From an uncultured Holophagales bacterium (GTDB lineage Bacteria > Acidobacteriota > Thermoanaerobaculia > Multivoradales > UBA5704): a stretch of DNA of 64,000 bases. Below are positions 10,159-63,529 of this stretch, piece by piece. The stretch lies in NCBI GenBank assembly GCA_963842525.1, contig CAWJGT010000032.1, positions 96,001 to 160,000 on the forward strand. Reading direction: 5' to 3'. Made by a program: the position numbers and the translations under genes. Under the pieces are notes generated by a model. It made no database searches and was not told where the DNA came from. It worked only from the letters and a program-made list of their open reading frames with translations. The first letter of the stretch is position 1, and the number at the start of each line of letters is the position of its first letter.

Positions 10159-11052
10159 CTACCGCTTCGAGCCTGTCTTCTTCCGCGGCGCGACCGCGGG
10201 CGCCGTGTCGGCCGTGGTGCGCGGCGACGGCTTGGGGCCTTTGCGGGCCGAGATGGACACGGGCTGGGCCGCGGGCTTGCCCGAGGACGAGAGGCTCGCC
10301 TTCAGAGCCTCCATGAGATCGATGATCTGGGCCTTGGGCGCCTCCTGCGGCGCGGCGGTGATCTCCTCGCCCTGGACCTTCTGGTCGATCAGGCTGCGGG
10401 TACGCTGGCGCACGTTGTCCTCGTACTCCTCGGGCTTGAACTCGTCGTTCGCGATCTGCTCGATGAGCTGGATGGCGAGCTTGAGCTCCGGCTCCTTGAC
10501 CTCCGACGGCGCCAGCGGCACCTCGGAGAAGGGACGGATCTCGTCGGCGTAGCGGAGCTGCTGCAGGATGAGGCCCCCGTCGTAGGGGCGCAGCAGCACG
10601 AGGTAGTCCTTGCCGCGTGCCGCATAGCGCGCCAGGGCCGCCCGGCCGGTCCGCTTCATGGCCTCGGAGAGCAGCAGATAGGGACGGTCACCGTTGCGGT
10701 CCGGCCCCAGGTAGGTGGCCTTCTCGTAGAAGATCGGATCGACCTGGTCCAGGGGGACGAACTCGGTGATGTCGATCGAATTGGTCGGCTCGGGGGTGAT
10801 CGCCTTCAGCTCTTCTTCGCTGAACAGAACATATTGCCCCTTCGCGTACTCATAACCTTTCACCATGTCTTCCCGGCCGACGACTTCGTTGTCCGTTGGA
10901 CAAAAATATTGTTGCCGCAACCGGGTACCGCACTTTTTGTGCAACATGTTGAGAGTGATGCCAGACGAGCTTTCCCCTGTGGAATAAAGCTTTACAGGGA
11001 TCGTTACGAGTCCGAAGGAGATGGTTCCGGAGGCGAAAGATCGGGCGCTCAT
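10159..11052 (-). CDS. ku: Ku protein (NHEJ)
   Basis: MSARSFASGTISFGLVTIPVKLY..MVKGYEY..IDITEFV..FYEKATYLGPD..IIDLMEALKASL, with a basic C-tail. Only the last ~297 aa of the 1109-aa track ORF are real. Confidence 0.95.
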   Translation of the reverse strand: MSARSFASGTISFGLVTIPVKLYSTGESSSGITLNMLHKKCGTRLRQQYFCPTDNEVVGREDMVKGYEYAKGQYVLFSEEELKAITPEPTNSIDITEFVPLDQVDPIFYEKATYLGPDRNGDRPYLLLSEAMKRTGRAALARYAARGKDYLVLLRPYDGGLILQQLRYADEIRPFSEVPLAPSEVKEPELKLAIQLIEQIANDEFKPEEYEDNVRQRTRSLIDQKVQGEEITAAPQEAPKAQIIDLMEALKASLSSSGKPAAQPVSISARKGPKPSPRTTADTAPAVAPRKKTGSKR

Positions 11053-11076
11053 TCCCATAATATTAAACCCATTGCA

Positions 11077-47964: not shown

Positions 47965-48999
<1,035 letters not shown>

Positions 49000-49034
49000 A
49001 GAGACGGCTGCTTACCCGCGGAAAGGAATCGAAC

Positions 49035-50168
49035 ATGGGGAGTGAGGTTCGCGAGGGGCTGGAAGGGGTCGTGGCGGCCACGACCCGGTTGAGCAGCGTG
49101 GACGGCGAAGCGGGTGTGCTGCTCCTCGCCGGTTTTCCGGTGGAAGAGGTGGCGCCCCAGGCGACGTTCGAGGAGCTCACCTGGCTGCTGTGGCACGGCG
49201 CGCTGCCCAAGGCCGCCGACCGCGAGGCCTTCACCCGGCGCCTCGCCGCGCGCCGGACGCTCCCGGCAGCCACGCTCGACCTGCTGCGGGGCCGCGGCGC
49301 TCCGGCGCTCCGGCGTGATGGACGCCCTGCGTATGGCCGCCGGCACTCTGAGCCTCGCCGAGGGAGCGGGGGAGCCGCAGGAGGATGCGGCGCTCCTGGT
49401 CGCAGCGTTCCCCACGATCGTCGCTTCCTACTGGCGCCTCCTCCAGGGCCAGGAGCCCCTTGCGCCGCGCGAGGGCCTCGGCCACACGGCGAGCTATCCT
49501 CCACCTCCTCACCGGACAGGAGCCCGACCCCGAGCGCGTCCGGGGCCTCGAAACCTATCTGAACACGGTGAGCGATCACGGCTTCAACGCCTCCACCTTC
49601 ACGGCGCGCGTGATCGTCTCGACCCGTTCGGACCTGATTTCGGCGATCACCGGTGCGGTCGGCGCGCTGAAAGGTCCGCTGCACGGCGGCGCCCCTGGAC
49701 CGGCGCTCGACATGGTCTTCGAGATCGGCTCGGCGGACCGCGCCGAGGAGGTGCTCCGCGACAAGCTCGGCCGGGGCGAGCGGCTGATGGGCTTCGGCCA
49801 CCGCGTCTATCGCGTACGCGATCCGCGCGCCGACGTCCTGGGCGCGGCGGCGGAACGTTTCTATCGCCGAGCCGGCGACATGGCGCTCTACGACCTCGCC
49901 CGCTCGGTCGAGGCCACGGCACTGCGCCTCCTGCGCGAGCACAAGCCGGACCGGAAGCTGGAGACCAACGTCGAGTTCTACACCGCCTTGCTGCTCCACG
50001 GCCTGGAGCTGCCCACCGAGCTGTTCACGCCCGGCCTTCGCGGTCGGCCGCGTCGCCGGCTGGACCGCGCACGCCTTCGAGCAACTCGAACGGGGCCGGC
50101 TGATCCGGCCCCAGTCCGAGTACGTGGGCGAGCGGGACCGCCGCTGGGTGGCTCTCGAGGATCGGTAG
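49035..50168 (+). CDS. citrate/2-methylcitrate synthase (three frameshifts)
   Basis: GLEGVVAATTRLSSVDGEAG, DHGFNASTFTAR, LKGPLHGGA, MGFGHRVYRVRDPRA, NVEFY and FAVGRVAGWTAH..LIRPQSEY. Confidence 0.9.
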
Positions 50169-50222
50169 CACCCTGGGAGCGCGGGCGTCTCGCCCGCACC
50201 AGGGCCTCGCGAGTCGCAGGGC

Positions 50223-50657
50223 TCACTGCTCGGTTGTGGATTTCCAGGGATTCAACAGGGGGAGGCCAAGCTTCAAGAAGTCCTGAACATTGCGGGTCAC
50301 CAGAGTCAATCGATGGACTTCCGCGGTGGCGGCGAAGAAAGCATCCAAGATACCGAGATTGAGCCCGGCTTTTTTGCCACGTGCCATGAAGATCCCCCAG
50401 GCTTCGGCAATCCGGCCGTCGATGTCGAGGATACGCCCTTCGAAGCGGGCCGGCAGATCTCCAGTCAACCAGGAGGCCAAGCGGTCGCGGCGCTTCCCTT
50501 GAGGCATCAACTCGACTCCCCGGCGGATTTCGGCGAGGGAGGCGACGCTCAGGAATACCCGGTCCTCATCCACCGCCTTCAGCCACGCAACCACTTGCGG
50601 ATCAGGCTGCGGTTTGACCCACTCGGAGACGACGTTCGTGTCGAGCAGGAAGCTCAC
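50223..50657 (-). CDS. vapC: VapC PIN toxin
   Basis: MSFLLDTNVVSE..AEIRRG..DAFFAATA..LTLVTRNVQDF. Confidence 0.92.
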   Translation of the reverse strand: MSFLLDTNVVSEWVKPQPDPQVVAWLKAVDEDRVFLSVASLAEIRRGVELMPQGKRRDRLASWLTGDLPARFEGRILDIDGRIAEAWGIFMARGKKAGLNLGILDAFFAATAEVHRLTLVTRNVQDFLKLGLPLLNPWKSTTEQ

Positions 50658-51069: not shown

Positions 51070-52188
51070 ATGATGACCGAGACGCCACAGCACCCGACGC
51101 TCCTGAGCCCGGTGCGGCTCGGCCCCTATACGCTGCACAACCGGCTGGCGATGGCTCCGATGACGCGCAAGCGCACGCCGGGGGAGGGGAACGTCCCGAA
51201 CGGAATGATGGCCACCTACTACCGCCAGCGCGCCTCGGCCGGCCTGATCATCACCGAAGGCTCGCAGGTCTCTCTCCAGGGTGTTGGCTATCCCGATACG
51301 CCGGGCATCCACACGGACGCGCAGGTCGAGGGCTGGCGGCGGATCACCGCGGCCGTCCACGAGCGCGGCGGCCGGATTTTCCTCCAGCTCTGGCACGTGG
51401 GACGGGTCTCCCACCCCTCGATCCAGCCGGGTGGGGCCCTCCCGGTGGCACCTTCACCCATCGTCCCGGAAGGCGCCTGGCACGGCGCCACCGGACCGCA
51501 GCCCTGGGCGGTTCCGCATGCTCTGGAGCCTGACGAGATCCCCGGCGTCGTGCGGCAGTTCGCCGAGGCCGCCCGCTGTGCCCTGGACGCCGGCTTCGAC
51601 GGCGTCGAGGTCCACGGCGCCAACGGCTACCTGCTCGATCAGTTCCTACGCGACGGGACCAATCATCGGACCGATGTCTACGGCGGACCGATCGAAAACC
51701 GCGCCCGTTTCCTCCTCGACGTCACCGAGGCCGTGGCCGCGGTCTGGGGTATGGACCGGGTCGGCGTCCGCCTCTCGCCGCTCAGCCCCTTCAACAGCAT
51801 GAGCGACTCCGATCCTGAGGCGACCTTTGGACATGCCGCCGAGGCCCTGGGGCGGCTGCGGATCGGATACCTGCACGGCGCCGCATTGGTGGGGAGCCAC
51901 GATCCATCGACCCGCGAGCATCGAATGGCGGCCCTGCTGAAGGAGAGGTTCGGGGGCACGTTCCTCCTCAATGGCGGCTTCGACCAGGCGAGCGGCGACG
52001 CGGTCGTCGCCTCCGGCCTCGCCGACATGGTCGCTTTCGGCGCCCTGTTCCTGGCCAATCCCGACCTGCCGGAACGCTTCGCCGAGGGAGCGCTCCTCAA
52101 CGTGCCGGACCGCGGCACCTTCTACGGCGGCGGCGAGCGGGGCTACATCGACTATCCGACCCGCGACGCCGTACCTGCGGCCGTCTGA
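51070..52188 (+). CDS. old yellow enzyme alkene reductase (NemA-like)
   Basis: NRLAMAPMTR, YYRQRASAGLIITEG, QLWHVGRVSH, EVHGANGYLLDQF and FYGGGERGYIDYP. Confidence 0.93.
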   Translation: MMTETPQHPTLLSPVRLGPYTLHNRLAMAPMTRKRTPGEGNVPNGMMATYYRQRASAGLIITEGSQVSLQGVGYPDTPGIHTDAQVEGWRRITAAVHERGGRIFLQLWHVGRVSHPSIQPGGALPVAPSPIVPEGAWHGATGPQPWAVPHALEPDEIPGVVRQFAEAARCALDAGFDGVEVHGANGYLLDQFLRDGTNHRTDVYGGPIENRARFLLDVTEAVAAVWGMDRVGVRLSPLSPFNSMSDSDPEATFGHAAEALGRLRIGYLHGAALVGSHDPSTREHRMAALLKERFGGTFLLNGGFDQASGDAVVASGLADMVAFGALFLANPDLPERFAEGALLNVPDRGTFYGGGERGYIDYPTRDAVPAAV

Positions 52189-52265
52189 CCTCGACAGATT
52201 CTTTTTTTCGCCAGCGCTCGGCGTCTCGGCGCTATAATCAGGACCATCTGCGAAAGCGCCGGTGG

Positions 52266-52919
52266 ATGGAGACCGAGGCGATGCAAGAAGAGGTCCGCCG
52301 AGCCCTGGCCGGGGACGAGCCCGCGCTGAACCGGCTCGTCCAGATCCTGACGCCGGTCATCCAGAGCCGGGTGGCCCGCGGCCTCCTCCTGCGGCGCGTC
52401 GGGGCGGCCAGCGGGCGCAACGTCCGGCAGGAGGTCGAAGACCTCACCCAGGACATCTTCCTGGTCCTGTTCGCCGACGGGGGTAAGGTGCTCCGGAGCT
52501 GGCAGCCGGACCGCGGGCTGACCCTGCCCAATTTCGTCGGTCTCGTTGCCGAACGGCAGACAGCCTCGATCCTGCGCAGCGGCCGGCGGAGCCCCTGGAA
52601 GGAAGACCCCACCCTTGCCGAGGATCTCGAGCAGGTGGCCACGGAGAGCGGCCCTGAGGAGGTGACCGCGTCCCGCGAGCAGCTTCGGCTCCTCCTGCGC
52701 AGGCTTGGCGAGGAGCTGAGCCCCCTGGGAAGACATCTCTTCGATCTCCTCTTCCTGCGCGAGATGCCGTTCGACGAGGTGGTCCGGCAGACGAGCATGA
52801 GCCCTGACGCCGTCTATGCCTGGCGCAGCCGCCTGCGTCGCCTGGCCCGCCGGCTGCTCGACGAGATGTCAAAAGAAGGCCTCGACTCGCGAAGACATCT
52901 GAGGGATGGACGAGTATGA
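52266..52919 (+). CDS. ECF-type sigma-70 factor
   Basis: VRRALAGDEPALNRLV..VEDLTQDIFLVLF..LRSW; region 4 LSPLGRHLFDLLFL..AVYAWRSRLRR. Confidence 0.85.
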   Translation: METEAMQEEVRRALAGDEPALNRLVQILTPVIQSRVARGLLLRRVGAASGRNVRQEVEDLTQDIFLVLFADGGKVLRSWQPDRGLTLPNFVGLVAERQTASILRSGRRSPWKEDPTLAEDLEQVATESGPEEVTASREQLRLLLRRLGEELSPLGRHLFDLLFLREMPFDEVVRQTSMSPDAVYAWRSRLRRLARRLLDEMSKEGLDSRRHLRDGRV

Positions 52920-53713
52920 ACGATGACCGATGGCTTCGAGAGCTGGCCCAAGTGAATCGCGAGACGGAAGCCGAGGAACGGTCCCATCTCGATGAGCGCT
53001 GGGACCGGTTGAGCGCCGGAGAGCTCACCCCGGAGGAGGAAGCGGAGCTGCGAGCCCTGGCCGAAACCTCCGAGGAGGCCCGCGAAGCCTACGAGGCGTT
53101 CCGGCCGCTCGGACTGGACTTCCAGGCCAGCGTGGTGGGCGCTATCCAAAAAGCCCAGAAGCCGCCGCCCAGGGTCTTGCCCTTTCCGCAGCCTGCCGCC
53201 TGGCTATGGAAAGCCGCAGCCGCGACGGCTGCTGCGGCCGCCGCCCTGTTCCTATTCGTGCGTACCCCGGCGCCGCTGCCCGCGCTGCCCGCCTACACCG
53301 CCCATCTGAGCGTCGGAGCCCAGAGCTCCCGCGGCACCGCAGAACCGTCCTCCGGGCTGCCGGTCTTTATCCCCGGCACGCGGTTGACCCTGGACCTGAG
53401 GCCGGAGCAAGCCGTTGCCGAATCCGTCGAGGCGCAAGCCTTCCTTGCTCGTGGCGCAGACATCTTTCTCTGGAAGCCCGAGCCACCCCTCGACCTCCCC
53501 CCCGGGGGTGCCGTGCGTCTGCAAGGCAGGCTGGGAGAGGAGATCCGACTGCAACCTGGGGAGTGGAGGATCTGGATCGTCGTCGGCCGCCCGGGAAAGA
53601 TTCCACCCGCGGACAAGATCGTGGCCGAGTTGCGTGCAGGACGGACCCGGCATGCCGATTGGCATGCAGTGGTATCGGAGAACCTGCGGGTCGCAGACCG
53701 CGCATCGCCATGA
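52916..53713 (+). CDS. putative membrane-anchored anti-sigma factor
   Basis: ATGA overlap with the sigma gene; cytoplasmic GELTPEEEAEL helix, a TM segment (AAAATAAAAALFLFV) and a beta-rich C-terminal domain. Confidence 0.7.
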   Translation: MNDDRWLRELAQVNRETEAEERSHLDERWDRLSAGELTPEEEAELRALAETSEEAREAYEAFRPLGLDFQASVVGAIQKAQKPPPRVLPFPQPAAWLWKAAAATAAAAAALFLFVRTPAPLPALPAYTAHLSVGAQSSRGTAEPSSGLPVFIPGTRLTLDLRPEQAVAESVEAQAFLARGADIFLWKPEPPLDLPPGGAVRLQGRLGEEIRLQPGEWRIWIVVGRPGKIPPADKIVAELRAGRTRHADWHAVVSENLRVADRASP

Positions 53714-56463
53714 AAGGGTGCCGGACACGAGGTCGTCTTGGCCGGGTGCTCCATCTGGTGAGCCTCGCCGCTCTCCTGTCCTCCTGTCGCTCCGATACTT
53801 CCGTCCCACTCCCGGAAGTCGAATACAGCGGCTGCTGGGCGGTTTACTTCCCAGGGCCCGTCTGCGCTCTCTGGCCAGTCTCTAACCCAGTGCTCAGGCT
53901 CTGGGTGAAGGCCGATCCCGGCGCGAAGGTGGAGATCCGGGCAGGGGACCGGCTCCTGACCGCGAGCGGTGAGGAGTGGGCCGGAGGCCGGCGCTATCGC
54001 CTGTCGCTCCCGCAGGAAGACTCCGGGCTCACGGTGCGGCTGCGGCAGGCGGACGGCGCCTACGGTCCATCCTGGTCGATGGCGCTGACCAGGACCGAGA
54101 TGCCCGCCTGGTTGAGCCGGTTCGGCGAGCTTGCAGGCAGCGGCAAGAGAAGGGCGGCTCGAGAACTGCTGCAACAGCGCTGGAAAGAGGCGCCCCGGAG
54201 CGAACAAGGGATCCTCCTGCGATCCTTCGCCCTGCTGGCCCGCCTGGAGGGCAACTCCGGGGAGCACGAGTCCTATCTCCAGCGGGGGATTGCGGCAGAC
54301 CGTGCTGAAAACTGCCTGAGCTGCGAGGTCGAGAAAGCGACCTTGCTGGCGGATTCTTATATGGGTCAAGGGCGCTTCAGCGAAGCGCGCAAGGTGTTGG
54401 AGAGCCTGGCGCTCCCTCCCGGGGCTCCGGTCGACTCGAAGTGCCTGGTGGCTTATCTGAAAGGCGTTCTTGCCAGCAGGGTCGGTGACTACCGCACGGC
54501 CCTGGAGCAGCTTCGGAAGGACATCGCCCTGGCGGAAAAGGTCTGGATGGAGAAGGCGCGCTGGAAAGCCGAGCTGGCCCTAGCCAACCTGCTGCAGGAT
54601 CTCGGCCGCTCGCACGACGCCTCGTTACTGTTCAAACGCCTTCACACCGCCCCTCATGTCGAGACTCCCTGCGACAAAGGGGACCTCTTGACCAGTTGGG
54701 CCTGGTCCTGGCTGCTCGCGCGGGAAGCGGGCGAGGAAGCCGAGGATCCGACGCCCATGCTGAAGGAAGCCCTGGCCGCCTACAACCCCTCTTGCGCTCC
54801 GCCGGAGCGGCGGTTCAACGCCCGCCTCAACCTCGTTCTGGCATTGCAGCAGGCGGAGCGGTGGAGCGAGGACCGGCAGGCCCTGGACCAGGCCCGCCCC
54901 CTGGCTTCCCATGCGAGCCTGCGCCAACGCCTCTGGTGGTATGACCTCGAAGCGCGGACCGCGATCGCCGCGGGGCGGCCGGAGCGTGGGTTGCGTCTTT
55001 ATGAGGAGCTCGCGGAGCTGGCCGAGCGCTCGCAGTCGTTCGAGGGTCGCTTTCGCGCCGCGTTCGGCCGGGCCCGCGCCGAGCTCGCCCTCGGCCGCCG
55101 GGCCGCGGCGCTCGCAGCTCTCGCCCAGGCGGACCGCTGCATCGACGAGCAGAGCCGGAATGTTCCGGCGTACGAGGGTCGCGACACCGTCGTCGGGCAG
55201 CGGGAGCAGGCCACGCGGCTCTACCTCCAGCTCCTCCTCGACGCGGGGCAGACGCAGGAAGCCTTCAGGCTGGCACGCCGCGCCCGTTCGCGGCTGCTGC
55301 GCCAGCTCACGGTCCGGGACCGGCTGGCGCTGCTGACCCCTCGGGAACAGGGGATCTGGGACCAGGCTCTGTCCGGGTATCGGGCGTTGCGCAACGAGGT
55401 CGATCAGCAGACGGCCGACGAATGGCAGCTTCCCGGGGACCAGAGGGAGCGCGCTCGGAAAGACCGGGCTTCGCAACTCGCTCAGGCCCGGGAGGATCTC
55501 GATCGCGCGATGGCCGAACTCGGAATCCCCAGGGACGACGACGAGATCCACCTTCTTCCGCCGCGTCCTGGCGAGGTCGTCCTGACCTACCATCCATTAC
55601 CCACGGGATTGTGGGCGGGATTTGCTGCCGATGAGCGAGGGCTCGAGGTCAGAACCTTCAGATTGCCTGCCAAGGGGTCCGCCGATTCCGTGGCGCTTGC
55701 CCAAGTCGTGCTCGAACCTTTCCGCCCGGCTCTTGAGCGAGCCGAGCGCGTGCGGGTGCTGCCCTATGGTCTCTTGCGGCTCGTTGATTTCCACACCCTG
55801 CCTTTTGGCGGAGAGCCGCTGCTCGCCCGGCACGTCGTGGTCTACGGACTCGACCTGCCGGCCCGGTCCTTCCCGGTCGACATGGACCGGCGTACGGCTC
55901 TCCTCGTCGCGGATCCGCAGGGTGACCTGGCGGCGGCGCGCCAGGAAGCATCAGTAGTTGCCGCGGCGGTTCGGACCTGGAAACCCGGCTGGACCCTGAA
56001 GCCGCTGGAGGGCACCGCGGCCCGCGCCGAGGACGTTCGCGCGGCGCTCCCTGACGCCGGTCTCTTCCACTACGCCGGCCACGGGACGTTCGCGGGCTTT
56101 GCCGGATGGGACAGTGTGCTCCCGCTGGCGGACGGCTCGTCTCTGACCCTCGGCGACCTTCTGGCCCTCCCCCGGGCTCCGGCCTGGGTGCTGCTCTCCT
56201 CCTGTGACGCCGCCCGCTCGTCCGAGCAGGCGCCGGGCGAAGGCATCGGCCTCGCCCATGCGTTCCTCCTGGCCGGTTCCCAGTTCGTAATCGCGGCCAC
56301 GCGGGAAGTCCCCGACCGCACCGCGCGCGACCTGCTGAGCGAGCTATATCGCGGATGGCAGCCGGGTGTGGACCTACCGCGCGAGTTCCAGCGGGCTCAG
56401 CAAATATGCAGCCATAGCCATTCTGCTTCTGATTGTGCGAGTTTTCGCCTGCTCGAGCCCTGA
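53710..56463 (+). CDS. TPR-CHAT (caspase-like) protease with lipoprotein signal
   Basis: MKGCRTRGRLGRVLHLVSLAALLSSC lipobox; TPR-like helices; CHAT motifs VADPQGDLAAARQE, FHYAGHG, LLSSCDA and GLAHAFLLAGS. Confidence 0.88.
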   Translation: MKGCRTRGRLGRVLHLVSLAALLSSCRSDTSVPLPEVEYSGCWAVYFPGPVCALWPVSNPVLRLWVKADPGAKVEIRAGDRLLTASGEEWAGGRRYRLSLPQEDSGLTVRLRQADGAYGPSWSMALTRTEMPAWLSRFGELAGSGKRRAARELLQQRWKEAPRSEQGILLRSFALLARLEGNSGEHESYLQRGIAADRAENCLSCEVEKATLLADSYMGQGRFSEARKVLESLALPPGAPVDSKCLVAYLKGVLASRVGDYRTALEQLRKDIALAEKVWMEKARWKAELALANLLQDLGRSHDASLLFKRLHTAPHVETPCDKGDLLTSWAWSWLLAREAGEEAEDPTPMLKEALAAYNPSCAPPERRFNARLNLVLALQQAERWSEDRQALDQARPLASHASLRQRLWWYDLEARTAIAAGRPERGLRLYEELAELAERSQSFEGRFRAAFGRARAELALGRRAAALAALAQADRCIDEQSRNVPAYEGRDTVVGQREQATRLYLQLLLDAGQTQEAFRLARRARSRLLRQLTVRDRLALLTPREQGIWDQALSGYRALRNEVDQQTADEWQLPGDQRERARKDRASQLAQAREDLDRAMAELGIPRDDDEIHLLPPRPGEVVLTYHPLPTGLWAGFAADERGLEVRTFRLPAKGSADSVALAQVVLEPFRPALERAERVRVLPYGLLRLVDFHTLPFGGEPLLARHVVVYGLDLPARSFPVDMDRRTALLVADPQGDLAAARQEASVVAAAVRTWKPGWTLKPLEGTAARAEDVRAALPDAGLFHYAGHGTFAGFAGWDSVLPLADGSSLTLGDLLALPRAPAWVLLSSCDAARSSEQAPGEGIGLAHAFLLAGSQFVIAATREVPDRTARDLLSELYRGWQPGVDLPREFQRAQQICSHSHSASDCASFRLLEP

Positions 56464-56593
56464 TCTTTTCCGTTCCTTGTCAGAAACAATTCCCCGGCCG
56501 CAAAAGCCTAATGTGTAGTCGCGGCATTGGATCAGTCCCGGAAGCCCGCTCAACGAGGAGCGGCCTTCTTGCCGCGGCCGGGAGGATAAATCC

Positions 56594-58690
56594 ATGAGAT
56601 TCAAGGCCTTCTGCATCCTGGTCGTTCTTCTGGGATTCAGCGCTGTAGTCAGCCGTGCCGCTGTGCAGCCGCCTGCTCCTGCGGCCGGGCTCGAAAACAT
56701 CGAGAAGAAGTGCGTGGCCACGAAGCCGGAAAACCCTGATTCTGAGGGCGCATGCGTCCAGTGGCGCCAGATCGGCTTCTTGAAGAAGGGAGTCAAGGAC
56801 GGCTGCCCGGCCGCCGATGGTTGGGAGGAGCCCCACTCGCTGTTGAAGCTGGCTCTCCTCGAGGCAAATAAAAAAACCGAGGAAGAAATCGATCAGGAGA
56901 GAAATGCATATTTAGCTCAGGAAGGCTTGCCCAAGCCGCAGATGGTCAGGATCAAACCGGCCGATCGCGCCCAGCTTCGCAAGCTGGGGCTCGACCGGGT
57001 TTGCGTCTACGAGGCGGAAGCCCCAGGGGAGCCGAATCTGAAGTCCTTGCCACCCCAGATCAAGCCGAAGCCGGACCGGCTGGCGCTCTCCACCACCAGT
57101 GCCGGAGGTCTTCCCATGGACTCTCTCAGCCAGGCGGTCTGGCAAGCCCTGGCGATTCGTTTTCGGGACCAGACGCTCCAAAGCGATGCAAACGGCCCGA
57201 GTCGGGTCCCCATTCCTTTGCCGGTGGAGCCCAGCGTCCGGCTGACATTCATCGACAGCCAGCCGGATGGCGAAGGGTTTCCCCTCGCGCCGCACAACGG
57301 CTCGCCGCACGGTTTCACCCTCGCCTACCTCGCTCGTGGCATGGTCTGTCCCGTTCCCGAGCGCTGCGCGGCCCTGGTCGTGACGCGGCGCGCTCTGAGC
57401 TTCGGAGACTTCACCCCGAGGGCCGTAATGCCCTCGAACGAGCTCCCGAGCGACCAGAGCGGTCACGTGGGCCTGATGAGCGACCTCGCCGTTAAGATTG
57501 TAGCGGAGGTCTTGTACTGGCGGCACTTCGACCCGGACAAGAAGCTGATTCTCAACCTTTCGCTCGGCTGGGACGGCGAGCTGTTCGGGGATCTCAAGAA
57601 ACACAAGCTTTCGAAGCTCGATCCCTCGGTACAGGCGGTCTACAAGGCCCTCCGCTTCGCCCGCCGCTCCGGTGCTCTCGTGATCGCCGCCGCGGGTAAC
57701 CAACGGGGCGGCAAGGTACCGTCCAACTCGCCGCTCCTTCCGGCAGCTTGGGAGCTGAAACGTCCCACCTGGCTGCCGTTCTTTCTCAGCCGCAAGCCGG
57801 TTTATGCCGTCGGCGGTGTGGACGGGCAACGCATGCCGCTTTCCAACTCTCGCCGCGGCGGGCTCCCGCGGCGAGCCACCTATGCGGACCATGCCGTGGC
57901 CGCAACCGAGGACCCCAACGATCCTACGGCGCTCTACACCGGTACGTCGGTCTCGGCGGCCGTAGCGTCCTCGATCGCCGCGATGGTCTGGCACCTGCGG
58001 CCGGATCTCAGCCCTTCCGAAGTGATGCGGCTGGTCACCCGGTCCGGCGACCCATTGCCCTTCCGGGCCGACTTCTACCCCTGGAAGAAGCTCTGGCCTC
58101 TCTCCAAGATCCTTAAGGCGCCGCACGCGAGGCGGCTTTCGCTCTGCCGGGCCGCCGAATCGGCCTGTGGCCCGGACGGCAGCAGGTGCCTCGCTCTGTC
58201 CTCCCTGCCGGCGTGTTCTGACCCTCCCGCCCCGTCACATGAGATCGAGGCGATCCTGCGTAGTCTCCCTGCCACGAAGAGCTCGGCGAGCCCGTCATTA
58301 AGTCCCCCTGAGCTCGTGGATGTGGCGAGCCAGCGGTGGGTCACGCCCCAACCGGAGGCGACTCCCTGTCCCAGTTGCGCGCTGGTTCCCGAGCCGTCTG
58401 GCTTCAGCGCGGCCGGTGCGCGGCTGGTGCTGGAAATCAGCAATGACTGGGACCCCGAGCAGAAGGTCCTTCTCACCGGCGCTACGCTTTACATCGATGG
58501 CTCGCCATCCTACGAGCTGACACACGACCAAGTGGTCCGCGGATCGGTGCACAGGATCTCGGTCGCGGCCGGAGGAAGACTGCTCCGAGCCCGGAGTGCT
58601 CAGATCACGTTCATGGCGAAAGACATAGCGACGGGAGAGCCGATGTCGATTCTGAACCCGGTCCTCGTCGTTGAACCCGTGGCACGATAA
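56594..58690 (+). CDS. secreted S8 (subtilase) family peptidase
   Basis: Signal peptide; FIDS (Asp), SPHG (His), LNLSLGW, AAAGN (oxyanion) and YTGTSVSAA (Ser). Confidence 0.8.
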   Translation: MRFKAFCILVVLLGFSAVVSRAAVQPPAPAAGLENIEKKCVATKPENPDSEGACVQWRQIGFLKKGVKDGCPAADGWEEPHSLLKLALLEANKKTEEEIDQERNAYLAQEGLPKPQMVRIKPADRAQLRKLGLDRVCVYEAEAPGEPNLKSLPPQIKPKPDRLALSTTSAGGLPMDSLSQAVWQALAIRFRDQTLQSDANGPSRVPIPLPVEPSVRLTFIDSQPDGEGFPLAPHNGSPHGFTLAYLARGMVCPVPERCAALVVTRRALSFGDFTPRAVMPSNELPSDQSGHVGLMSDLAVKIVAEVLYWRHFDPDKKLILNLSLGWDGELFGDLKKHKLSKLDPSVQAVYKALRFARRSGALVIAAAGNQRGGKVPSNSPLLPAAWELKRPTWLPFFLSRKPVYAVGGVDGQRMPLSNSRRGGLPRRATYADHAVAATEDPNDPTALYTGTSVSAAVASSIAAMVWHLRPDLSPSEVMRLVTRSGDPLPFRADFYPWKKLWPLSKILKAPHARRLSLCRAAESACGPDGSRCLALSSLPACSDPPAPSHEIEAILRSLPATKSSASPSLSPPELVDVASQRWVTPQPEATPCPSCALVPEPSGFSAAGARLVLEISNDWDPEQKVLLTGATLYIDGSPSYELTHDQVVRGSVHRISVAAGGRLLRARSAQITFMAKDIATGEPMSILNPVLVVEPVAR

Positions 58691-58753
58691 ACTTTGAGTC
58701 TGGCCTTGAAGCTACCTCCAGTCCACCCCTGAGCCTTCTACGATCACACCCTG

Positions 58754-58790
58754 AGCGCCGGCCTCCGTCGACACGGAGGCCGGCGCTTCT
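58754..58790 (+). terminator. hairpin downstream of S8 gene
   Basis: AGCGCCGGCCTCCGT-cgac-ACGGAGGCCGGCGCT followed by TCTCTT. Confidence 0.6.
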
Positions 58791-58882
58791 CTTGATAGCC
58801 GTTGTTTCCTGTCAGAAATCCACCACGAAGCGCGAAAAGCCCTTTCAGAAGGACCTCGAAGTCCGCTCGAAAGGAGCTTCGT

Positions 58883-61825
58883 ATGCGCCTCGCAAGAAAG
58901 AAGGGATTTCTCCCGGCACTCCTCGTGCTGTCCCTGTGGTTTCCGGGCCAGGCCTGGGGTGTCCCTCCCCGGGTCGAGTGTGCCCATGCCCCGGCCCACC
59001 TATCCACTTTCACCCCTGATTGCAGCGACGTCCTCGACTGCGACCCGCTGATCAATGTGCCAGGCTTCGTGCGCATCGGAGATCCGGTCGGCGCTCCGGG
59101 CGACGAGGAGCCGCGCTTCTTCTTTGACGAGGCGGGCGCCGGTCGCTTCCACACCGAGCTCTTCTCCCGCATCTACAACAACGGCGGCCATCCGGCGCCG
59201 AGCGGCCAGGTGACGGTGCGCTTGTCGGTCAAGGCCAACGCGACCGGACCCGGCGACACCTCCGATCCCTTCACGACGATCGGCGATTACGTGATGGATA
59301 TCCCGGTCATGCCCGAAGACTGGCTCACCGCCAACGCCTCCCATGATCAGCCTATGACGAAGCCGGTGTGCTGGATCCTGGGCGCCGGAGAGCTGTTTCC
59401 CAAGAAGTTCCTGCTCAAGGCGGAGGTGCTCTGGCCCCAGGACGAAGCTCCGGGCAACAACACCCTGTATCAGTTTTATGACCTGACCGCCGAGGCCCTC
59501 CCTGCCGACATCGCCTTTTCCATGGATCTGTCCGGCAGCATGGCCATTGCGGTCCCTGGCGGGGGCTCCCGCCTCGCCGTGGCCCAGGACCGGGCCCGGA
59601 TGTTCATCGATCTGATCGAGATCGAGGATGGGGTACCTCACAACCGCCTGGGCCTCTTCGGCTTCGCCACCGGCATGCCGGCGGCGGTGAAGAGCGACTT
59701 CACCGGCACCTGGAAGTCTTCGGCCGCAGCGTCGCACTCGAGCCTCCTGAGCGAAACGGCGGTGCTCTTTCCTTTCCAGGAGATTGGCTCCGCCGCCGAC
59801 AGGCTGGCCGGACGGATTGCAGTTTCCGACCCCGTGGTAGTCAGGCCCTATGGCTGCACGCCGGTGGGGCAGGGCCTGCTGCGCGCGAAGAGTGAGCTTT
59901 TGAGCCTCTCTGATCCGCCGGGCACGGAGCGGAGCCGGGCAATCGTGCTCTTCAGCGACGGATTTCAGAACGTCGGTCCCTACGTGAACGAGGTGCCGCC
60001 GGAGCTGTGCGGCGGCCCGAGCTCGCTCGCTCTGATCCATGCCGAGGAGACGTTCAAGAACAACACCCCCACTCTGCCGATCTACTCCGTCTTCTTCGGC
60101 GCCGAGAGCGGTTGGGCTCACCAGCTCATGCTGGACCTCCAGGCCCAGACTGGCGGCGACTACCTCTATTACACCGGCACTTCGCTCGAGCTGGCCGCCG
60201 CCTACTACCAGATCCGCCATCTGGTGGCGTCCAACGCCCTGCTCTTCCTGGAGGAGGACGGCAAGGCCGTCGGCGCGAGCCCGACCGCGGCTGTCCCGGT
60301 CTACTTCGATGCCGCCTCCTTGACGGCCACTGTGGGCCTGGCCTGGCCGGTGGGAGCACAGGGCACCCTTCTCACCGTCGAGGCAAGGCCGGCAGGGGGG
60401 AACAATCAGCAGCCCTGGCAAGACCTGGGCGGCCAGCTCGGCACGGCCAGGGTCGACCCGCCCGGGAAAAACCGCTTCCATGATGCGTACCGGGTCTTCC
60501 GCTTCACTCCGGGCACTAGCAAGACCTGGGAGCTGAGGGTGCGGCAGGTGGCGCCGGGCCAGGGGACGGTCCCCTACACGCTGGCCGTCTTCGCCCGCAC
60601 CGAGGAGGTGCGCCTCAAGGCCTCGCTCGGAGCGGAGGGCTTCGCCGCCGGCAAGGCCCTGCCCATCTATGCGGATCTCCGGAGCGCCGGCCATCCGGTG
60701 CCGAACGCGGACGTACGGGCGACCGTCACCGCGCCGGCCCGGCCTTTCAGCACCACCCTGCGGCGCTATGCGGACCGGCTGACCGTCGATCGTGGAGCCG
60801 GCGACCAGACCGTAGCCCGCCTGGCCGCGCAGCTCCAGGGAGTCCTGGCGCAGGAGGTGGGCTCTCCGGATCTCTACCCGGTACGGCAGCTCACGGTCAC
60901 CCTCAACGACCGCGGCCAGGGCGCGGACCGGCTCCCCGGCGACGGGGTGTACACCGGCGAGGTCCCCGCGGCCGAGACCACGGTGGCAGGCAACTACGGC
61001 GTCATCGTGACCGCCACCGGCAACCGGTCCGGCGTACCGTTCGAGCGCACGGAGAAGCTGGGCTCGATCGCGGCCATCGGGCCGATCGATCCGGAGCGGA
61101 CCGAAGTTCGCTTCTCCGCTCCCCGGCAGCTCGGTGACCAGTTGCGCGCCGTGGACGTCACCGTGCTCGCCATGGATCGCTTCGGCAATGCCACCTTCCC
61201 AGGGGCGGCGTCGACGATCACCCTGCTTCCTCAGCCTGGGGGCGGCACCCTGGCCGGCGCGCTGGCCGACGATCTGACCTCTACATACAGCCAGACGCTG
61301 GTCCTCGCCCCGGGCGAACAACCCGCGGTCACGTTGCGGATCGATGGGCAGGACCTGGGCAGCTTCCAGCCCGGGTCCAAGCCGGGTGCGTTCGCGCGCT
61401 TCGAGGCGAGCGTCCATGCCGGGCTGGCCGTACCCCATGGGGTTTTCGGGGAGAGCCTGGACGAGGGGCCGGCCTTCGCCGTGGATGCCACCTATCGCTT
61501 TACATCCTATGTCGCCCTACGGAGTGAGCTCGGCTTCTCGCTCTTCGACGATCCGGTCGGCGGCGACCGGCGGATGATCCATTTCGTCCCTTACCTCCAG
61601 CTCCGCAACCCGGTGCCGGTCTGGCAGCCCTATTTCGAAGCGGGGCCGGGCGTCTATGACCTCGAGAGCGCCGGCACCGCCGGAGGCTTCTCGGCGGGCG
61701 TCGGCGTGCAGCGACAGATCGCGCCGCACTGGCGGCTGGACCTGGCCCTCCATGGCCACCATGCCGGCGGCGGCCTCGACGCCACCTACAGCCAGACCAA
61801 GATCGGTTTCCAGATCACCTTTTAG
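58883..61825 (+). CDS. secreted VWA-domain protein with Ig-like repeats and C-terminal outer-membrane beta-barrel
   Basis: Signal peptide; MIDAS DLSGS..TP..FSDG; DRLPGDGVYTG motif; ~150-aa amphipathic strands ending IGFQITF. Confidence 0.8.
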   Translation: MRLARKKGFLPALLVLSLWFPGQAWGVPPRVECAHAPAHLSTFTPDCSDVLDCDPLINVPGFVRIGDPVGAPGDEEPRFFFDEAGAGRFHTELFSRIYNNGGHPAPSGQVTVRLSVKANATGPGDTSDPFTTIGDYVMDIPVMPEDWLTANASHDQPMTKPVCWILGAGELFPKKFLLKAEVLWPQDEAPGNNTLYQFYDLTAEALPADIAFSMDLSGSMAIAVPGGGSRLAVAQDRARMFIDLIEIEDGVPHNRLGLFGFATGMPAAVKSDFTGTWKSSAAASHSSLLSETAVLFPFQEIGSAADRLAGRIAVSDPVVVRPYGCTPVGQGLLRAKSELLSLSDPPGTERSRAIVLFSDGFQNVGPYVNEVPPELCGGPSSLALIHAEETFKNNTPTLPIYSVFFGAESGWAHQLMLDLQAQTGGDYLYYTGTSLELAAAYYQIRHLVASNALLFLEEDGKAVGASPTAAVPVYFDAASLTATVGLAWPVGAQGTLLTVEARPAGGNNQQPWQDLGGQLGTARVDPPGKNRFHDAYRVFRFTPGTSKTWELRVRQVAPGQGTVPYTLAVFARTEEVRLKASLGAEGFAAGKALPIYADLRSAGHPVPNADVRATVTAPARPFSTTLRRYADRLTVDRGAGDQTVARLAAQLQGVLAQEVGSPDLYPVRQLTVTLNDRGQGADRLPGDGVYTGEVPAAETTVAGNYGVIVTATGNRSGVPFERTEKLGSIAAIGPIDPERTEVRFSAPRQLGDQLRAVDVTVLAMDRFGNATFPGAASTITLLPQPGGGTLAGALADDLTSTYSQTLVLAPGEQPAVTLRIDGQDLGSFQPGSKPGAFARFEASVHAGLAVPHGVFGESLDEGPAFAVDATYRFTSYVALRSELGFSLFDDPVGGDRRMIHFVPYLQLRNPVPVWQPYFEAGPGVYDLESAGTAGGFSAGVGVQRQIAPHWRLDLALHGHHAGGGLDATYSQTKIGFQITF

Positions 61826-61840
61826 AAAGGAGCAACGGTC

Positions 61841-63529
61841 ATGATCAGACAAGTACGGCATCAGCCCCGCTTGCGCCGGGCCGGGTTGCGAGCCTGCGCC
61901 GCCTTCATCGCCCTGCTGGCGTTCTCCGTGAACGCAGCCGCCGATCCGTTCACCCTCTATGGCCAGGTCTTCCAGGTCGATCCGGAGTTGGCCGCGGACG
62001 AATCCATCGAAGACGCCGACCTGCCGGTCGGTCTGCGCGTGCCCTTCGTCCAGGTCCAGGTGGTGGACCCGGACACCGGCGAGAGCCGGGGAGCCCCGGT
62101 CTTCGCCGGCGCCAACGGCAACTTCACCCTCCACTTCGACGCTCCGGCCGGATCCACCGCGGCGATCCAGGTCTTCCGATCGGTCAATACGACGACGGGC
62201 GATCCGGAGGTGCAGATCTATCCGGAAGCCCGGAAAGACCTCAATACCTTTCCTCTCACCAATGCGCCTACAGGAGTGGCCGTCAAGGTGGCCAGCGAGG
62301 AAACGCTTCTCCTCGACCCGGGCAGCAGCTTCAACGCTTCCGTGGGCATCGTCTTCACGCAGGTCGGATTGGTGGAAATCCCCTACATCTCCCAGGATCT
62401 GGCTCGGCCGGACAAGGGGCGCATCGGCCTGGCCGATCTCTCCGGCGACCTCACCCGGGCCGCCGAGCAGAACCTCTCCAGTGACCCGTCAGCGGCCAGC
62501 TACAATGCCGTCTTCAAAGACGCTCCATTCGGCGGCCTGCTGCATGTCTTCGGCGCCTTCGGCAAACTCTCCGGAATTCCGCCGTGCACCGGCGCGGTCG
62601 ACTGGTATCGCGTGAAGATCCGTCCGGTCAGCTTCGACGGTGCCGGCAATCCAGTCTATGGCGCGGCCTTCGAAGGCACCGACCTGCTGCGCAAGATGCG
62701 TTTTGAGGTTGACTATGTCCCCACGTTCCGGGCCGATTCCTTTCTGGAGAAGATCGGACCCTACGACGGCGACGACCTGACCTCAGGCGTGGCAGTGCCG
62801 ATCCACAATCTGTACCGGGTCAACCCTTCTCCCACTACACCCGGCCAGACCGTGGTCTATAGCATGGCCGACCAGCGCTACAGTTGGGCGACGGGGGGAA
62901 ACCCTCCGGGCCTCTACGAAATCAGCCTGGAGTACTTCCGGGACGCAGGGACCACGGACCCCACCCAGCCACGCGTGACGAAGATCGCCGACGCTCCATG
63001 CTTCGGCGGCACCCTGCCACCGGAGGACGCGGACGAGGTGGCTTTGCACAAGCTCCTGGTCCGCATCGACAACACCCCCCTGGAGTCCAGCATGGATGGG
63101 CTCTTCGTACGCACCGGCGCTTCCCGTTCTTTCAACTATCTCGAGCCGGGGCACCTATGCGACATCATCGACCTCAACGCCGGAAGCACGATCGAGATCG
63201 ACTTCAAAGCCTGGCACAATGCCGGATATCTACGCTCCTACAGACTCACCGCCATTTCCAATGCAAAGGACAACGTGCCCTTTGCCGCGGCAGCGGACAA
63301 CTACGACAACCACAGCGCCTGTGGCCCCCTCTGGCGGGGCGGCACGGGCGCCTGCCCGGCAGTCGCTCCGCCAGGGGCCGCGCCGGTCATCACGGCTACC
63401 AGCACGTCACCCTTCCCCAGGTGCGCCTACGGCTTCGATCTGGTAGTGCAAGGGCGGGCGCAGAACGGCTACGGCTATCTCCAGGGCGCCCATCATCGGC
63501 AGATCTACTATGTAAACCCGCTGCCGTAA
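61841..63529 (+). CDS. secreted hypothetical protein (beta-rich, Cys-containing)
   Basis: RBS AAGGAG, signal peptide ..LLAFSVNAAA, 562 aa, operonic with the VWA gene. Confidence 0.75.
   Translation: MIRQVRHQPRLRRAGLRACAAFIALLAFSVNAAADPFTLYGQVFQVDPELAADESIEDADLPVGLRVPFVQVQVVDPDTGESRGAPVFAGANGNFTLHFDAPAGSTAAIQVFRSVNTTTGDPEVQIYPEARKDLNTFPLTNAPTGVAVKVASEETLLLDPGSSFNASVGIVFTQVGLVEIPYISQDLARPDKGRIGLADLSGDLTRAAEQNLSSDPSAASYNAVFKDAPFGGLLHVFGAFGKLSGIPPCTGAVDWYRVKIRPVSFDGAGNPVYGAAFEGTDLLRKMRFEVDYVPTFRADSFLEKIGPYDGDDLTSGVAVPIHNLYRVNPSPTTPGQTVVYSMADQRYSWATGGNPPGLYEISLEYFRDAGTTDPTQPRVTKIADAPCFGGTLPPEDADEVALHKLLVRIDNTPLESSMDGLFVRTGASRSFNYLEPGHLCDIIDLNAGSTIEIDFKAWHNAGYLRSYRLTAISNAKDNVPFAAAADNYDNHSACGPLWRGGTGACPAVAPPGAAPVITATSTSPFPRCAYGFDLVVQGRAQNGYGYLQGAHHRQIYYVNPLP

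Follow-up and report, generated by a model that had tools for sequence, protein, structure and literature searches.

We analyzed a 64,000-nucleotide stretch of DNA (hereafter the window; contig CAWJGT010000032.1 of assembly GCA_963842525.1, positions 96,001 to 160,000 of the forward strand) from an uncultured Holophagales bacterium of the Acidobacteriota. The window carries a four-gene cassette encoding a sigma factor of the extracytoplasmic function (ECF) type, a candidate membrane anti-sigma factor, a TPR-CHAT protein of the caspase type with a lipoprotein signal, and an S8 protease. This cassette is a genuine and conserved unit; it is abundant in soil Acidobacteriota and also occurs in Myxococcota. 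Sigma factor, anti-sigma factor, and exported TPR-CHAT protein very probably form a sensor module, with the S8 protease as its sigma-dependent output. That the TPR-CHAT protein is also the site-1 protease of the anti-sigma factor is a proposal to which we give somewhat less than even weight.

Conservation of the four-gene cassette

The cassette consists of the following genes.

52266..52919, plus strand: ECF-type sigma gene (217 amino acids, aa)
52916..53713, plus strand: anti-sigma candidate gene (265 aa)
53710..56463, plus strand: TPR-CHAT lipoprotein gene (917 aa)
56594..58690, plus strand: S8 protease gene (698 aa)

An earlier note, made from the letters of this DNA alone, had described four open reading frames (ORFs) here with two ATGA overlaps, and all of these are present in the sequence. 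The stop codon of the sigma gene and the start codon of the anti-sigma gene share ATGA at positions 52916-52919, and the anti-sigma stop and the CHAT start share ATGA at 53710-53713. The S8 gene follows after a gap of 130 nt, with GGGAGG 8 nt 5' of its ATG. The G+C content is about 64-70% across the region, with no compositional break.

The same note had called for a census of the neighborhood. A scan with one genome per species yielded 226 CHAT-encoding stretches, and the best 80 loci of these 226 were used. We determined gene order by tblastn with the window proteins against these related loci, and the counts refer to the 72 loci with at least 1700 bp upstream, the 76 with at least 2200 bp downstream, or the 69 with both flanks. 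Upstream of the CHAT gene (n = 72), a sigma gene was found in 68 loci, an anti-sigma gene in 67, and both in 66. An S8 homologue lay directly 3' of CHAT in 68 of 76 loci. Where both flanks were available, all four genes were present in 56 of 69 loci and the first three in 63 of 69. Four-nucleotide overlaps, judged from automatic start calls, occurred at 28 of 63 sigma/anti-sigma junctions and at 33 of 67 anti-sigma/CHAT junctions. According to the record titles, the hosts are mostly Thermoanaerobaculia and other Acidobacteriota metagenome-assembled genomes (MAGs), joined by the Myxococcota carriers Pyxidicoccus, Polyangium, Sorangium, Chondromyces, and Kofleriaceae and by a few unclassified bacteria; there are no Actinobacteria among the titles of the related loci.

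The genes that flank the cassette in the window have no homologues in the 80 loci, except for a weak match to a downstream 562-aa ORF in one locus (L067), and no gene family beyond the core four is common to more than 10 of the related loci. These observations bear on the idea that the four genes are neighbors by chance and have no joint function. What can be said for it is the general caution that adjacency need not mean interaction. The census refutes it, as 56 of 69 loci, from two phyla, share the gene order while the flanks vary, and the gene overlaps, the fused forms of the proteins, and a motif linking the module to S8 (all described below) also speak against it. We give this idea almost no weight.

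Eight of the 76 loci lack the S8 gene (three Polyangium, three Sorangium, one Kofleriaceae, and one Polyangiales). Six of the eight retain both the sigma and the anti-sigma gene, and all six are from Polyangium or Sorangium (L052, L063, L065, L071, L072, and L079). All four of the S8-less Polyangium/Sorangium loci that were inspected encode small lipoproteins (one or two, each of about 145 aa) 3' of CHAT. In L052, L065, and L071 (around positions 10700-12000), they stand in place of S8.

Sigma factor, candidate anti-sigma factor, and TPR-CHAT protein

As judged from its sequence, the product of the first gene is a divergent ECF sigma factor (group 4 of the sigma-70 family, with sigma2 and sigma4 only and about 200 aa). 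The window protein had no Pfam match at E<=0.01 and scored under the NCBIfam cutoff for TIGR02937 (35.7 versus 42.9 bits). A profile of 65 sequences (the window protein and 64 orthologues) matched the ECF sigma structure 9isn_F over residues 8-195 with an E value of 4.9e-9. Sigma70_r2 was matched by 31 and Sigma70_r4_2 by 28 of the 65 profile members. 9isn_F, the nearest solved relative, is the Streptomyces sigma factor ShbA, of group ECF40 (PMC12019637). A search with the sigma profile gave only close orthologues among the best 120 of 2030 matches, which placed the window protein in no ECF group. A public protein identical to the window sigma factor (P0233) has 212 aa, compared with 217 aa for the ORF from 52266; therefore, the deposited start is probably the second methionine (MQEEV..., 52281). 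The orthologue alignment does not discriminate between starts at 52266 and 52281.

The 265-aa product of the second gene is a candidate single-pass membrane anti-sigma factor, a reading that draws on its AlphaFold2 (AF2) model (predicted local distance difference test [pLDDT] score, 85.9). The model has four N-terminal helices (residues 3-80) and a further helix at 102-115, which is contained in a hydrophobic segment at about residues 96-116 read from the sequence. Residues 127-259 form a predicted periplasmic beta-sandwich, modeled with confidence. The alignment of 68 anti-sigma proteins has two invariant residues. One of them is Arg139 (68 of 68), which is followed by Gly140 in 50 of 68 members; position 140 is occupied by G, S, or A. 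In the model, Arg139 belongs to a loop of lower confidence, some 22 residues past the membrane segment, and we propose this Arg139-Gly loop as a candidate cleavage site. A search of the PDB with the anti-sigma profile returned nothing meaningful (best E value, 0.18). Two observations serve as leads only, namely, that zf-HC2 was matched by 1 of the 68 members and that the Atlas neighbors of the protein (score 0.93) carry zf-HC2 in 18% and DUF4384 in 33% of cases. An exhaustive profile search found 3400 cluster representatives of the family in public data at E<=0.001.

The earlier note had held that the third protein keeps its His-Cys dyad and starts with a lipoprotein signal, which would place it on the same side of the membrane as the C-terminal domain of the anti-sigma factor. 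Both points are borne out by the relatives. Pfam CHAT was matched with 98.4 bits (cutoff, 24) over residues 662-904, and H791 (in HYAGHG) and C832 (in LSSC) are each present in all 68 aligned proteins (the window protein and 67 relatives). The lipobox cysteine C26 is present in 63 of 68, with A, S, T, or G at position -1 in 59 of 68. C42 and C52 are found in 68 of 68, an invariance that would suit disulfides outside the cytoplasm. The AF2 model (pLDDT, 88; predicted template modeling score, 0.86) consists of a beta-sandwich (residues 37-127), a TPR superhelix (133-603), and the CHAT domain (622-917). The best PDB matches to this model in Foldseek were entries of DdvA, a protein of Myxococcus xanthus (8rw5, E value of 2.6e-14; 8rot_A, E value of 7.5e-14), and the ranking after DdvA gives Csx29 (chains at ranks 3 to 11) and separase. 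The best PDB match to the CHAT family profile was also DdvA (8rot_B, E value of 2.1e-7), over the CHAT domain only. Near-full-length relatives amounted to 85 cluster representatives at E<=1.3e-138, the window protein included. The ATG at 53710 encodes M1 of the CHAT protein and is kept in at least 90% of the 68 aligned proteins. The ORF list holds a longer ORF in the CHAT frame, starting at 53206 and extending upstream into the anti-sigma gene; 53206-56463 was rejected as the CHAT gene on account of its 508-nt overlap with the anti-sigma gene.

Natural fusions connect the second and third proteins. A search of longer proteins with the anti-sigma profile returned P0115 (1179 aa) and P0116 (1121 aa), which both include CHAT, and the best 150 of the 3400 anti-sigma profile matches included three long proteins, P0318 (1249 aa), P0342 (1156 aa), and P0115. 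All four fusions join an anti-sigma-like N-terminus to a C-terminal CHAT domain in which H791 and C832 are kept. In none of the four is there a hydrophobic stretch at the junction, and the lipoprotein signal is gone. A single hydrophobic segment lies near residues 89-129 in P0115, P0116, and P0318; P0342 has none above threshold. P0115 aligns to residues 36-917 of the window CHAT protein with 40% identity, and its beta-sandwich runs directly into the equivalent of CHAT residue 36, without a signal peptide. Since these fusions have the layout of DdvA, we argue that the anti-sigma factor and the CHAT protein of the window cooperate in the periplasm. Export of the CHAT protein is supported by its conserved signal and lipobox cysteine, by the invariant cysteine pairs, and by these fusions, in which the periplasmic end of the anti-sigma factor leads into it.

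We infer that the CHAT protein binds the anti-sigma factor. The complex prediction that the earlier note had suggested was run on the orthologue pair from L075 (CHAT residues 19-841 with anti-sigma residues 113-249); the window pair has more than 1000 residues. It weakly supports a complex, with a score of 0.54 (runs of 0.54, 0.53, and 0.57), compared with 0.00 for the best of three controls. The runs agreed in at least 39% of contacts, and the pLDDT of the partner was at least 74. Of 157 solved complexes, 116 reached the score mark, as did 2 of 215 mismatched pairs, and scores that passed the mark at 0.60 or below came from only 18 of the 157 solved complexes and from both of the passing mismatches.

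Promoter-like motif, S8 protease, and downstream genes

The spacer between the CHAT and S8 genes contains the motif cTGTCAGAAAc-N12-GCGAAg, which, written as promoter elements, reads TGTCAG-N17-CGAA. A position weight matrix (PWM) was built from 51 S8-upstream sites and used to scan 1.316 Mb of loci with a threshold of >=18 bits. This gave 133 matches on the gene strand and 3 on the opposite strand, and none in three dinucleotide shuffles. By location, 55 matches precede S8, another 49 are found further 3' of it, 5 lie 5' of the module, and 27 lie elsewhere; 25 of these 27 are at the 3' end of the sigma gene. As the model was built from S8-upstream sites, only the remaining 81 matches are independent of it. 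Within the 64-kb window, only two matches reach 13 bits, at 56476 and 58808. The elements of interest in the window are as follows.

56476..56506, plus strand: ECF-like motif before S8 (PWM 35.4; TGTCAG at 56478-56483, GCAAA at 56500-56504)
58808..58838, plus strand: second ECF-like motif, CCTGTCAGAAAT...GCGAAAA (PWM 25.8; 45 nt before the ATG at 58883)
52865..52895, plus strand: degenerate ECF-like motif, TGTCAAAAGA-N12-GCGAAG, at the sigma 3' end (6.3 bits, spacing kept)
52233..52238, plus strand: TATAAT, a -10-like hexamer 33 nt before the sigma start
58753..58788, plus strand: hairpin, a perfect 16 bp followed by UUCUCUU (-35.2 kcal/mol, z -5.8)

The motif inside the sigma gene begins 51 nt 5' of the anti-sigma start, a position that is fixed in most loci. 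It scores at least 10 bits in 43 of 68 cases (the window and 67 loci) and at least 18 bits in 25 of 68, and in control windows 300 nt further upstream, 0 of 67 score at least 10 bits. Within 300 nt upstream of detected sigma genes, there were no PWM matches of >=18 bits in the 80 loci. In L062, a match is located 320 nt 5' of the sigma ORF that was detected there, and the next called ORF has Sigma70_r2. Three Sorangium loci carry the motif upstream of the sigma gene on the opposite strand, facing a divergent gene. No Rfam family was matched at E<=1 over 51900-59100; hence, the motif corresponds to no known RNA element. Its form is similar to that of the sigma X promoter of Bacillus subtilis, TGTAAC-N17-CGAC.

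The TATAAT at 52233..52238 may serve the sigma/anti-sigma/CHAT operon as a housekeeping promoter. Of 65 sigma upstream regions, 41 contain a TA[TC]A[AC]T hexamer, in most cases 23-57 nt 5' of the start codon. A sigma-70 promoter scan of 51900-59000 gave 0 sites, with no -35 element to match the TATAAT, so that the housekeeping reading draws on the -10-like hexamer only. The hairpin at 58753..58788 lies between S8 and the second motif and is likely the terminator of the S8 transcript. In 200 shuffles, none folded as well; a simple terminator scan did not list it.

The S8 protein looks like an active, secreted serine protease of the subtilisin type. Of the features that the earlier note had read in it, the apparent full catalytic triad holds across the family and the signal peptide is borne out in most of its members. 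D221, H239, and S452, together with the oxyanion residue N369, are each present in 69 of 69 proteins (the window protein and 68 orthologues), and a hydrophobic N-terminus is found in 58 of 70 orthologues, many of which have a lipobox, not a plain signal peptide. Pfam Peptidase_S8 was matched with 46.9 bits (cutoff, 21.8), over profile positions 93-272 only. The region of residues 1 to about 210, N-terminal to the catalytic Asp, lies outside the Pfam coverage, and this stretch of about 200 aa, with several conserved cysteines, may be a prodomain. A KACADWRWIG motif (GACVQWRQIG in the window) is conserved right after the signal peptide, at about residues 40-60.

The earlier note had offered the S8 protease as trigger, substrate, or output of the system. 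The S8 gene has its own promoter-like motif, common to other downstream genes, and its own terminator, which favors output over the other two roles. Were it the trigger, basal secreted S8 would cut the anti-sigma factor or activate the CHAT protein, and, as S8 is itself sigma dependent, the result would be a positive feedback switch. Such a role would suit the most conserved motif-bearing gene (55 loci), whose product is extracytoplasmic and catalytically intact by sequence and whose lipoprotein form in many orthologues would hold it at the envelope. However, CHAT occurs without an adjacent S8 in 8 of 76 loci, 6 of the 8 with sigma and anti-sigma genes, and S8 is a separate transcription unit with a terminator of its own. 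Moreover, no fusion of S8 with the anti-sigma factor or other link between them was seen, the complex prediction having covered CHAT/anti-sigma only. We consider S8 quite improbable as the trigger.

Two further genes lie downstream of S8 in the window.

58883..61825, plus strand: 980-aa secreted protein with a C-terminal outer membrane beta-barrel (AAAGGAG 5' of the ATG)
61841..63529, plus strand: 562-aa ORF, 15 nt after the previous gene

The first of these, preceded by the second motif, is the probable second gene of the regulon. Its product has a signal-like N-terminus, MRLARKKGFLPALLVLSLWFPGQAWG, read from the sequence, and matches Pfam OMP_b-brl with 33.8 bits (cutoff, 28.7) over residues 856-976. 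No homologue of this protein was found in any of the 80 related loci. A DLSGS stretch in it is reminiscent of a von Willebrand A metal site, although Pfam called no such domain. The 562-aa ORF had no Pfam, NCBIfam, or PADLOC match and is possibly cotranscribed with 58883..61825.

In other genomes, the motif precedes a variety of genes. In several loci, it occurs in 3 to 5 consecutive copies 3' of S8, each before a different gene (e.g., L018:13211-18675, L032:13051-16300, and L028:12254-18341), and the cassette seems to stand at the start of a small regulon island whose cargo can be exchanged. A Pfam scan of this cargo covered 38 proteins, namely, 36 crude first ORFs after motifs in the related loci and two window proteins. 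Twelve of the 38 had a match (papain-like, 2; S8, 2; trypsin, 2; transthyretin-like, 2; OMP barrel, 2; TIR, 1; sigma, 1); one OMP barrel is the window gene, and the sigma match is the ORF of L062. One cargo family, with members of about 700-780 aa, recurs in L006, L016, L022, L028, L036, L040, and L043 (e.g., L016:7911-10247). Its members share a conserved N-terminal ERANFKALVL-NPN-FGN stretch and have no signal peptide; the family had no Pfam or PADLOC match, and its Atlas neighbors are all annotated "hypothetical protein." The cargo at L025:4810-5556, behind a motif, is a TIR protein with a PADLOC match to ThsB (E value, 3.1e-7).

This cargo raises the question of whether the cassette regulates an antiphage defense island, with the CHAT protein sensing a periplasmic phage protein. 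This is a proposal about the role of the system and is compatible with the mechanism favored below. DdvA, the closest structural relative of the CHAT protein, controls cyclic oligonucleotide-based antiphage signaling (CBASS) and CRISPR-Cas systems, the cargo 3' of S8 is variable, as in defense islands, and the TIR protein of L025 matches ThsB. Against this, that protein was the sole match when PADLOC was run on six window and nine cargo proteins, with 0 of the 6 window proteins matched. Only 1 of the 38 scanned proteins is defense-like, compared with six secreted-type proteases, and the neighbors of the cassette in the window are metabolic genes. A secreted protease as the conserved output is a better fit to the sensing of nutrient or prey protein. 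A defense role is therefore improbable in our view, if slightly less so than a trigger role for S8.

Related systems, candidate mechanism, and genomic setting

The earlier note had held that no characterized system with this layout was known to it. That statement needs correcting, because the fused form, DdvA, and the neighborhood of group ECF54 have been described. DdvA is a transmembrane anti-sigma factor with a fused periplasmic TPR-CHAT part and has DdvS as its partner sigma factor; it is reported to control CBASS and CRISPR-Cas and is stated to be the only characterized anti-sigma factor of its type (PMC11506125). Its authors propose that signal-induced autoproteolysis by CHAT is the site-1 step before RseP (PMC11506125). 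The window system shares with DdvA a periplasmic TPR-CHAT part of the separase/craspase type, with a His-Cys dyad, that is tied to an ECF pair of sigma and anti-sigma factors, and four of the relatives found for the window proteins have the fused DdvA layout. DdvA itself is set apart from separase and craspase by a CHAT active site that lacks their three-helix motif. Unlike in DdvA, the anti-sigma factor and the TPR-CHAT part are two proteins in the window, the latter predicted to be lipid anchored, and the anti-sigma factor has a predicted periplasmic beta-sandwich of its own. Its residues 1-95 contain no cysteine, which excludes a CHCC zinc domain like that of DdvA at its N-terminus. The CHAT domain is the only part with sequence likeness to DdvA (profile positions 762-908 aligned with DdvA 835-984), and the sigma profile gave no match to DdvS even at E<=10. 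The likely regulon here, a secreted protease with variable cargo, also differs from CBASS and CRISPR. The window system looks like a split version of DdvA, not a wholly new kind. In the literature that was searched, the split lipoprotein form was not found, and papers combining CHAT, ECF, and anti-sigma all concerned DdvA or craspase. Paired DdvA-like copies have been reported in Myxococcota, and some genomes in our set likewise carry two copies of the cassette (L026 and L028 are from one MAG, as are L053 and L078).

ECF54 sigma factors are described as encoded with a carboxypeptidase-regulatory-like protein (at +1), a subtilase, and a TPR-CHAT protein; the group is 100% actinobacterial, its description reports no anti-sigma factor, and its promoter elements are given as GTATCAG (-35) and CTCC (-10) (PMC7826278). 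Proteolysis has been proposed as the mode of regulation of ECF54, and a review groups it accordingly (PMC8999054). As in ECF54, subtilase and TPR-CHAT genes stand beside an ECF sigma gene in the window, and the -35 element GTATCAG resembles TGTCAG; the -10 element CTCC compares with CGAA here. Unlike in ECF54, the +1 protein of the window has no carboxypeptidase-regulatory-like Pfam match and looks like a membrane anti-sigma factor.

In the craspase of type III-E CRISPR, the TPR-CHAT protein Csx29 cleaves Csx30 and thereby frees a sigma factor; craspase is cytoplasmic, RNA guided, and bound to Cas7-11. The window system shares the TPR-CHAT fold and, as proposed here, a caspase-like cut that is coupled to setting an ECF-type sigma factor free. 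It differs from craspase in its export signal and its candidate membrane anti-sigma factor. The earlier note had considered the system independent of CRISPR, and Pfam and PADLOC scans of the neighboring genes agree with this, as they found no CRISPR/Cas family; CRISPR arrays were not searched for. A further comparison is offered by classical RseA, which is cleaved in regulated intramembrane proteolysis by DegS and RseP (PMC11506125). The window protein resembles RseA as a single-pass anti-sigma factor with a periplasmic domain that would need removal and with a candidate cut shortly outside the membrane. In contrast to DegS, a general PDZ serine protease, the proposed site-1 protease is a dedicated caspase-family lipoprotein from the same operon.

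We propose the following mechanism. Sigma factor, anti-sigma factor, and CHAT protein would be made constitutively from one operon behind the housekeeping-type -10 element. The anti-sigma factor would cross the inner membrane once, holding the sigma factor with its N-terminal helices and facing the periplasm with its beta-sandwich. The TPR-CHAT lipoprotein, in the same compartment, would associate with that beta-sandwich, equivalent to DdvA in two polypeptides. A signal, which probably is a protein or peptide that the TPR part binds, would render the His-Cys dyad active, and the CHAT domain would then clip the periplasmic part of the anti-sigma factor, with the Arg139-Gly loop as the candidate site. 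A site-2 protease would complete the cleavage and free the sigma factor. The freed sigma factor would read TGTCAG-N17-CGAA and so switch on S8, the next gene in the window, and variable cargo in other genomes. In many genomes, the sigma-internal motif would also raise the levels of anti-sigma factor and CHAT protein, which would provide negative feedback. As our best explanation, the whole of this (sensor and switch, CHAT activation, and sigma-driven output together) comes close to an even chance, while the detailed version, in which a lipid-anchored periplasmic caspase acts in trans as a ligand-gated site-1 protease, cuts at Arg139-Gly, and leads through the sigma factor to a regulon of secreted protease and cargo, is more doubtful.

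Several points weigh against this reading. Cleavage of the anti-sigma factor by the CHAT protein is a step that we infer, and the invariant Arg139 could instead be structural. The anti-sigma N-terminus had no Pfam match in the window protein and no sequence match in the PDB, and Foldseek with the anti-sigma model gave only generic immunoglobulin-like sandwiches (E value of about 1e-3). The weak complex prediction concerns an orthologue pair, not the window pair, and, as it gave no interface, it does not tell whether the Arg139 loop lies close to the active site. It is the placement of the motif alone that suggests recognition of TGTCAG-N17-CGAA by this sigma factor; the sigma-internal copy in the window is degenerate, at 6.3 bits, and no copy lies 5' of the sigma gene in the window. 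The site-1 role of CHAT is unproven in DdvA as well: ddvS remained repressed with the H862A and C907A variants, as with the wild type, and phage Mx4 triggered no autoproteolysis; its authors state that the signal is not known (PMC11506125).

Some of these points suit a different reading, in which the CHAT lipoprotein controls the anti-sigma factor by binding only, its protease activity targets, for example, the S8 zymogen, the cargo, or the signal, and a general envelope protease makes the site-1 cut. The invariant dyad indicates that activity is selected but leaves the substrate unspecified. The N-terminal region of S8 (about residues 1-210) is compatible with a prodomain that needs removal, and both the fusions and the weakly supported complex fit binding as well as cleavage. 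The dyad mutants of DdvA are reported to behave like the wild type in unperturbed cells (PMC11506125). Against binding only, the CHAT protein is encoded with the sigma and anti-sigma factors and not solely behind the target promoter. It also stays with them in the six S8-less Polyangium/Sorangium loci, so that S8 cannot be its universal substrate. We regard binding only as unlikely, though it is the strongest of the alternatives, and retain cleavage by the CHAT protein as the preferred reading.

Regulated anti-sigma proteolysis is one of the main ways in which bacteria perceive their surroundings, and a general protease usually makes the first cut. If the proposed mechanism is true, the CHAT lipoprotein would be the first caspase-type site-1 protease to act in trans on an anti-sigma factor, and a widespread one (the anti-sigma family by itself counts 3400 representatives). 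The split form, which puts protease and substrate in separate proteins, makes the site-1 idea easier to test, since either protein can be mutated, titrated, or purified on its own. The predicted promoter offers a ready reporter and S8 a conserved readout, and experimental hosts exist, since the cassette occurs in cultured Myxococcota (Pyxidicoccus, Polyangium, and Sorangium). The cassette may also explain the timing of protease secretion in protein-degrading or predatory bacteria.

Of the genes upstream of the cassette in the window, one is an ORF with the C-terminal domain of citrate synthase (49385-50362; 48986-49999) that covers profile positions 146-330 only. Long ORFs on both strands overlap it, and it may therefore be mis-started or truncated. 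By Pfam, the upstream neighbors are metabolic: besides this citrate-synthase-like ORF, they include an isocitrate/isopropylmalate dehydrogenase and a flavin oxidoreductase of the old yellow enzyme (OYE) type.

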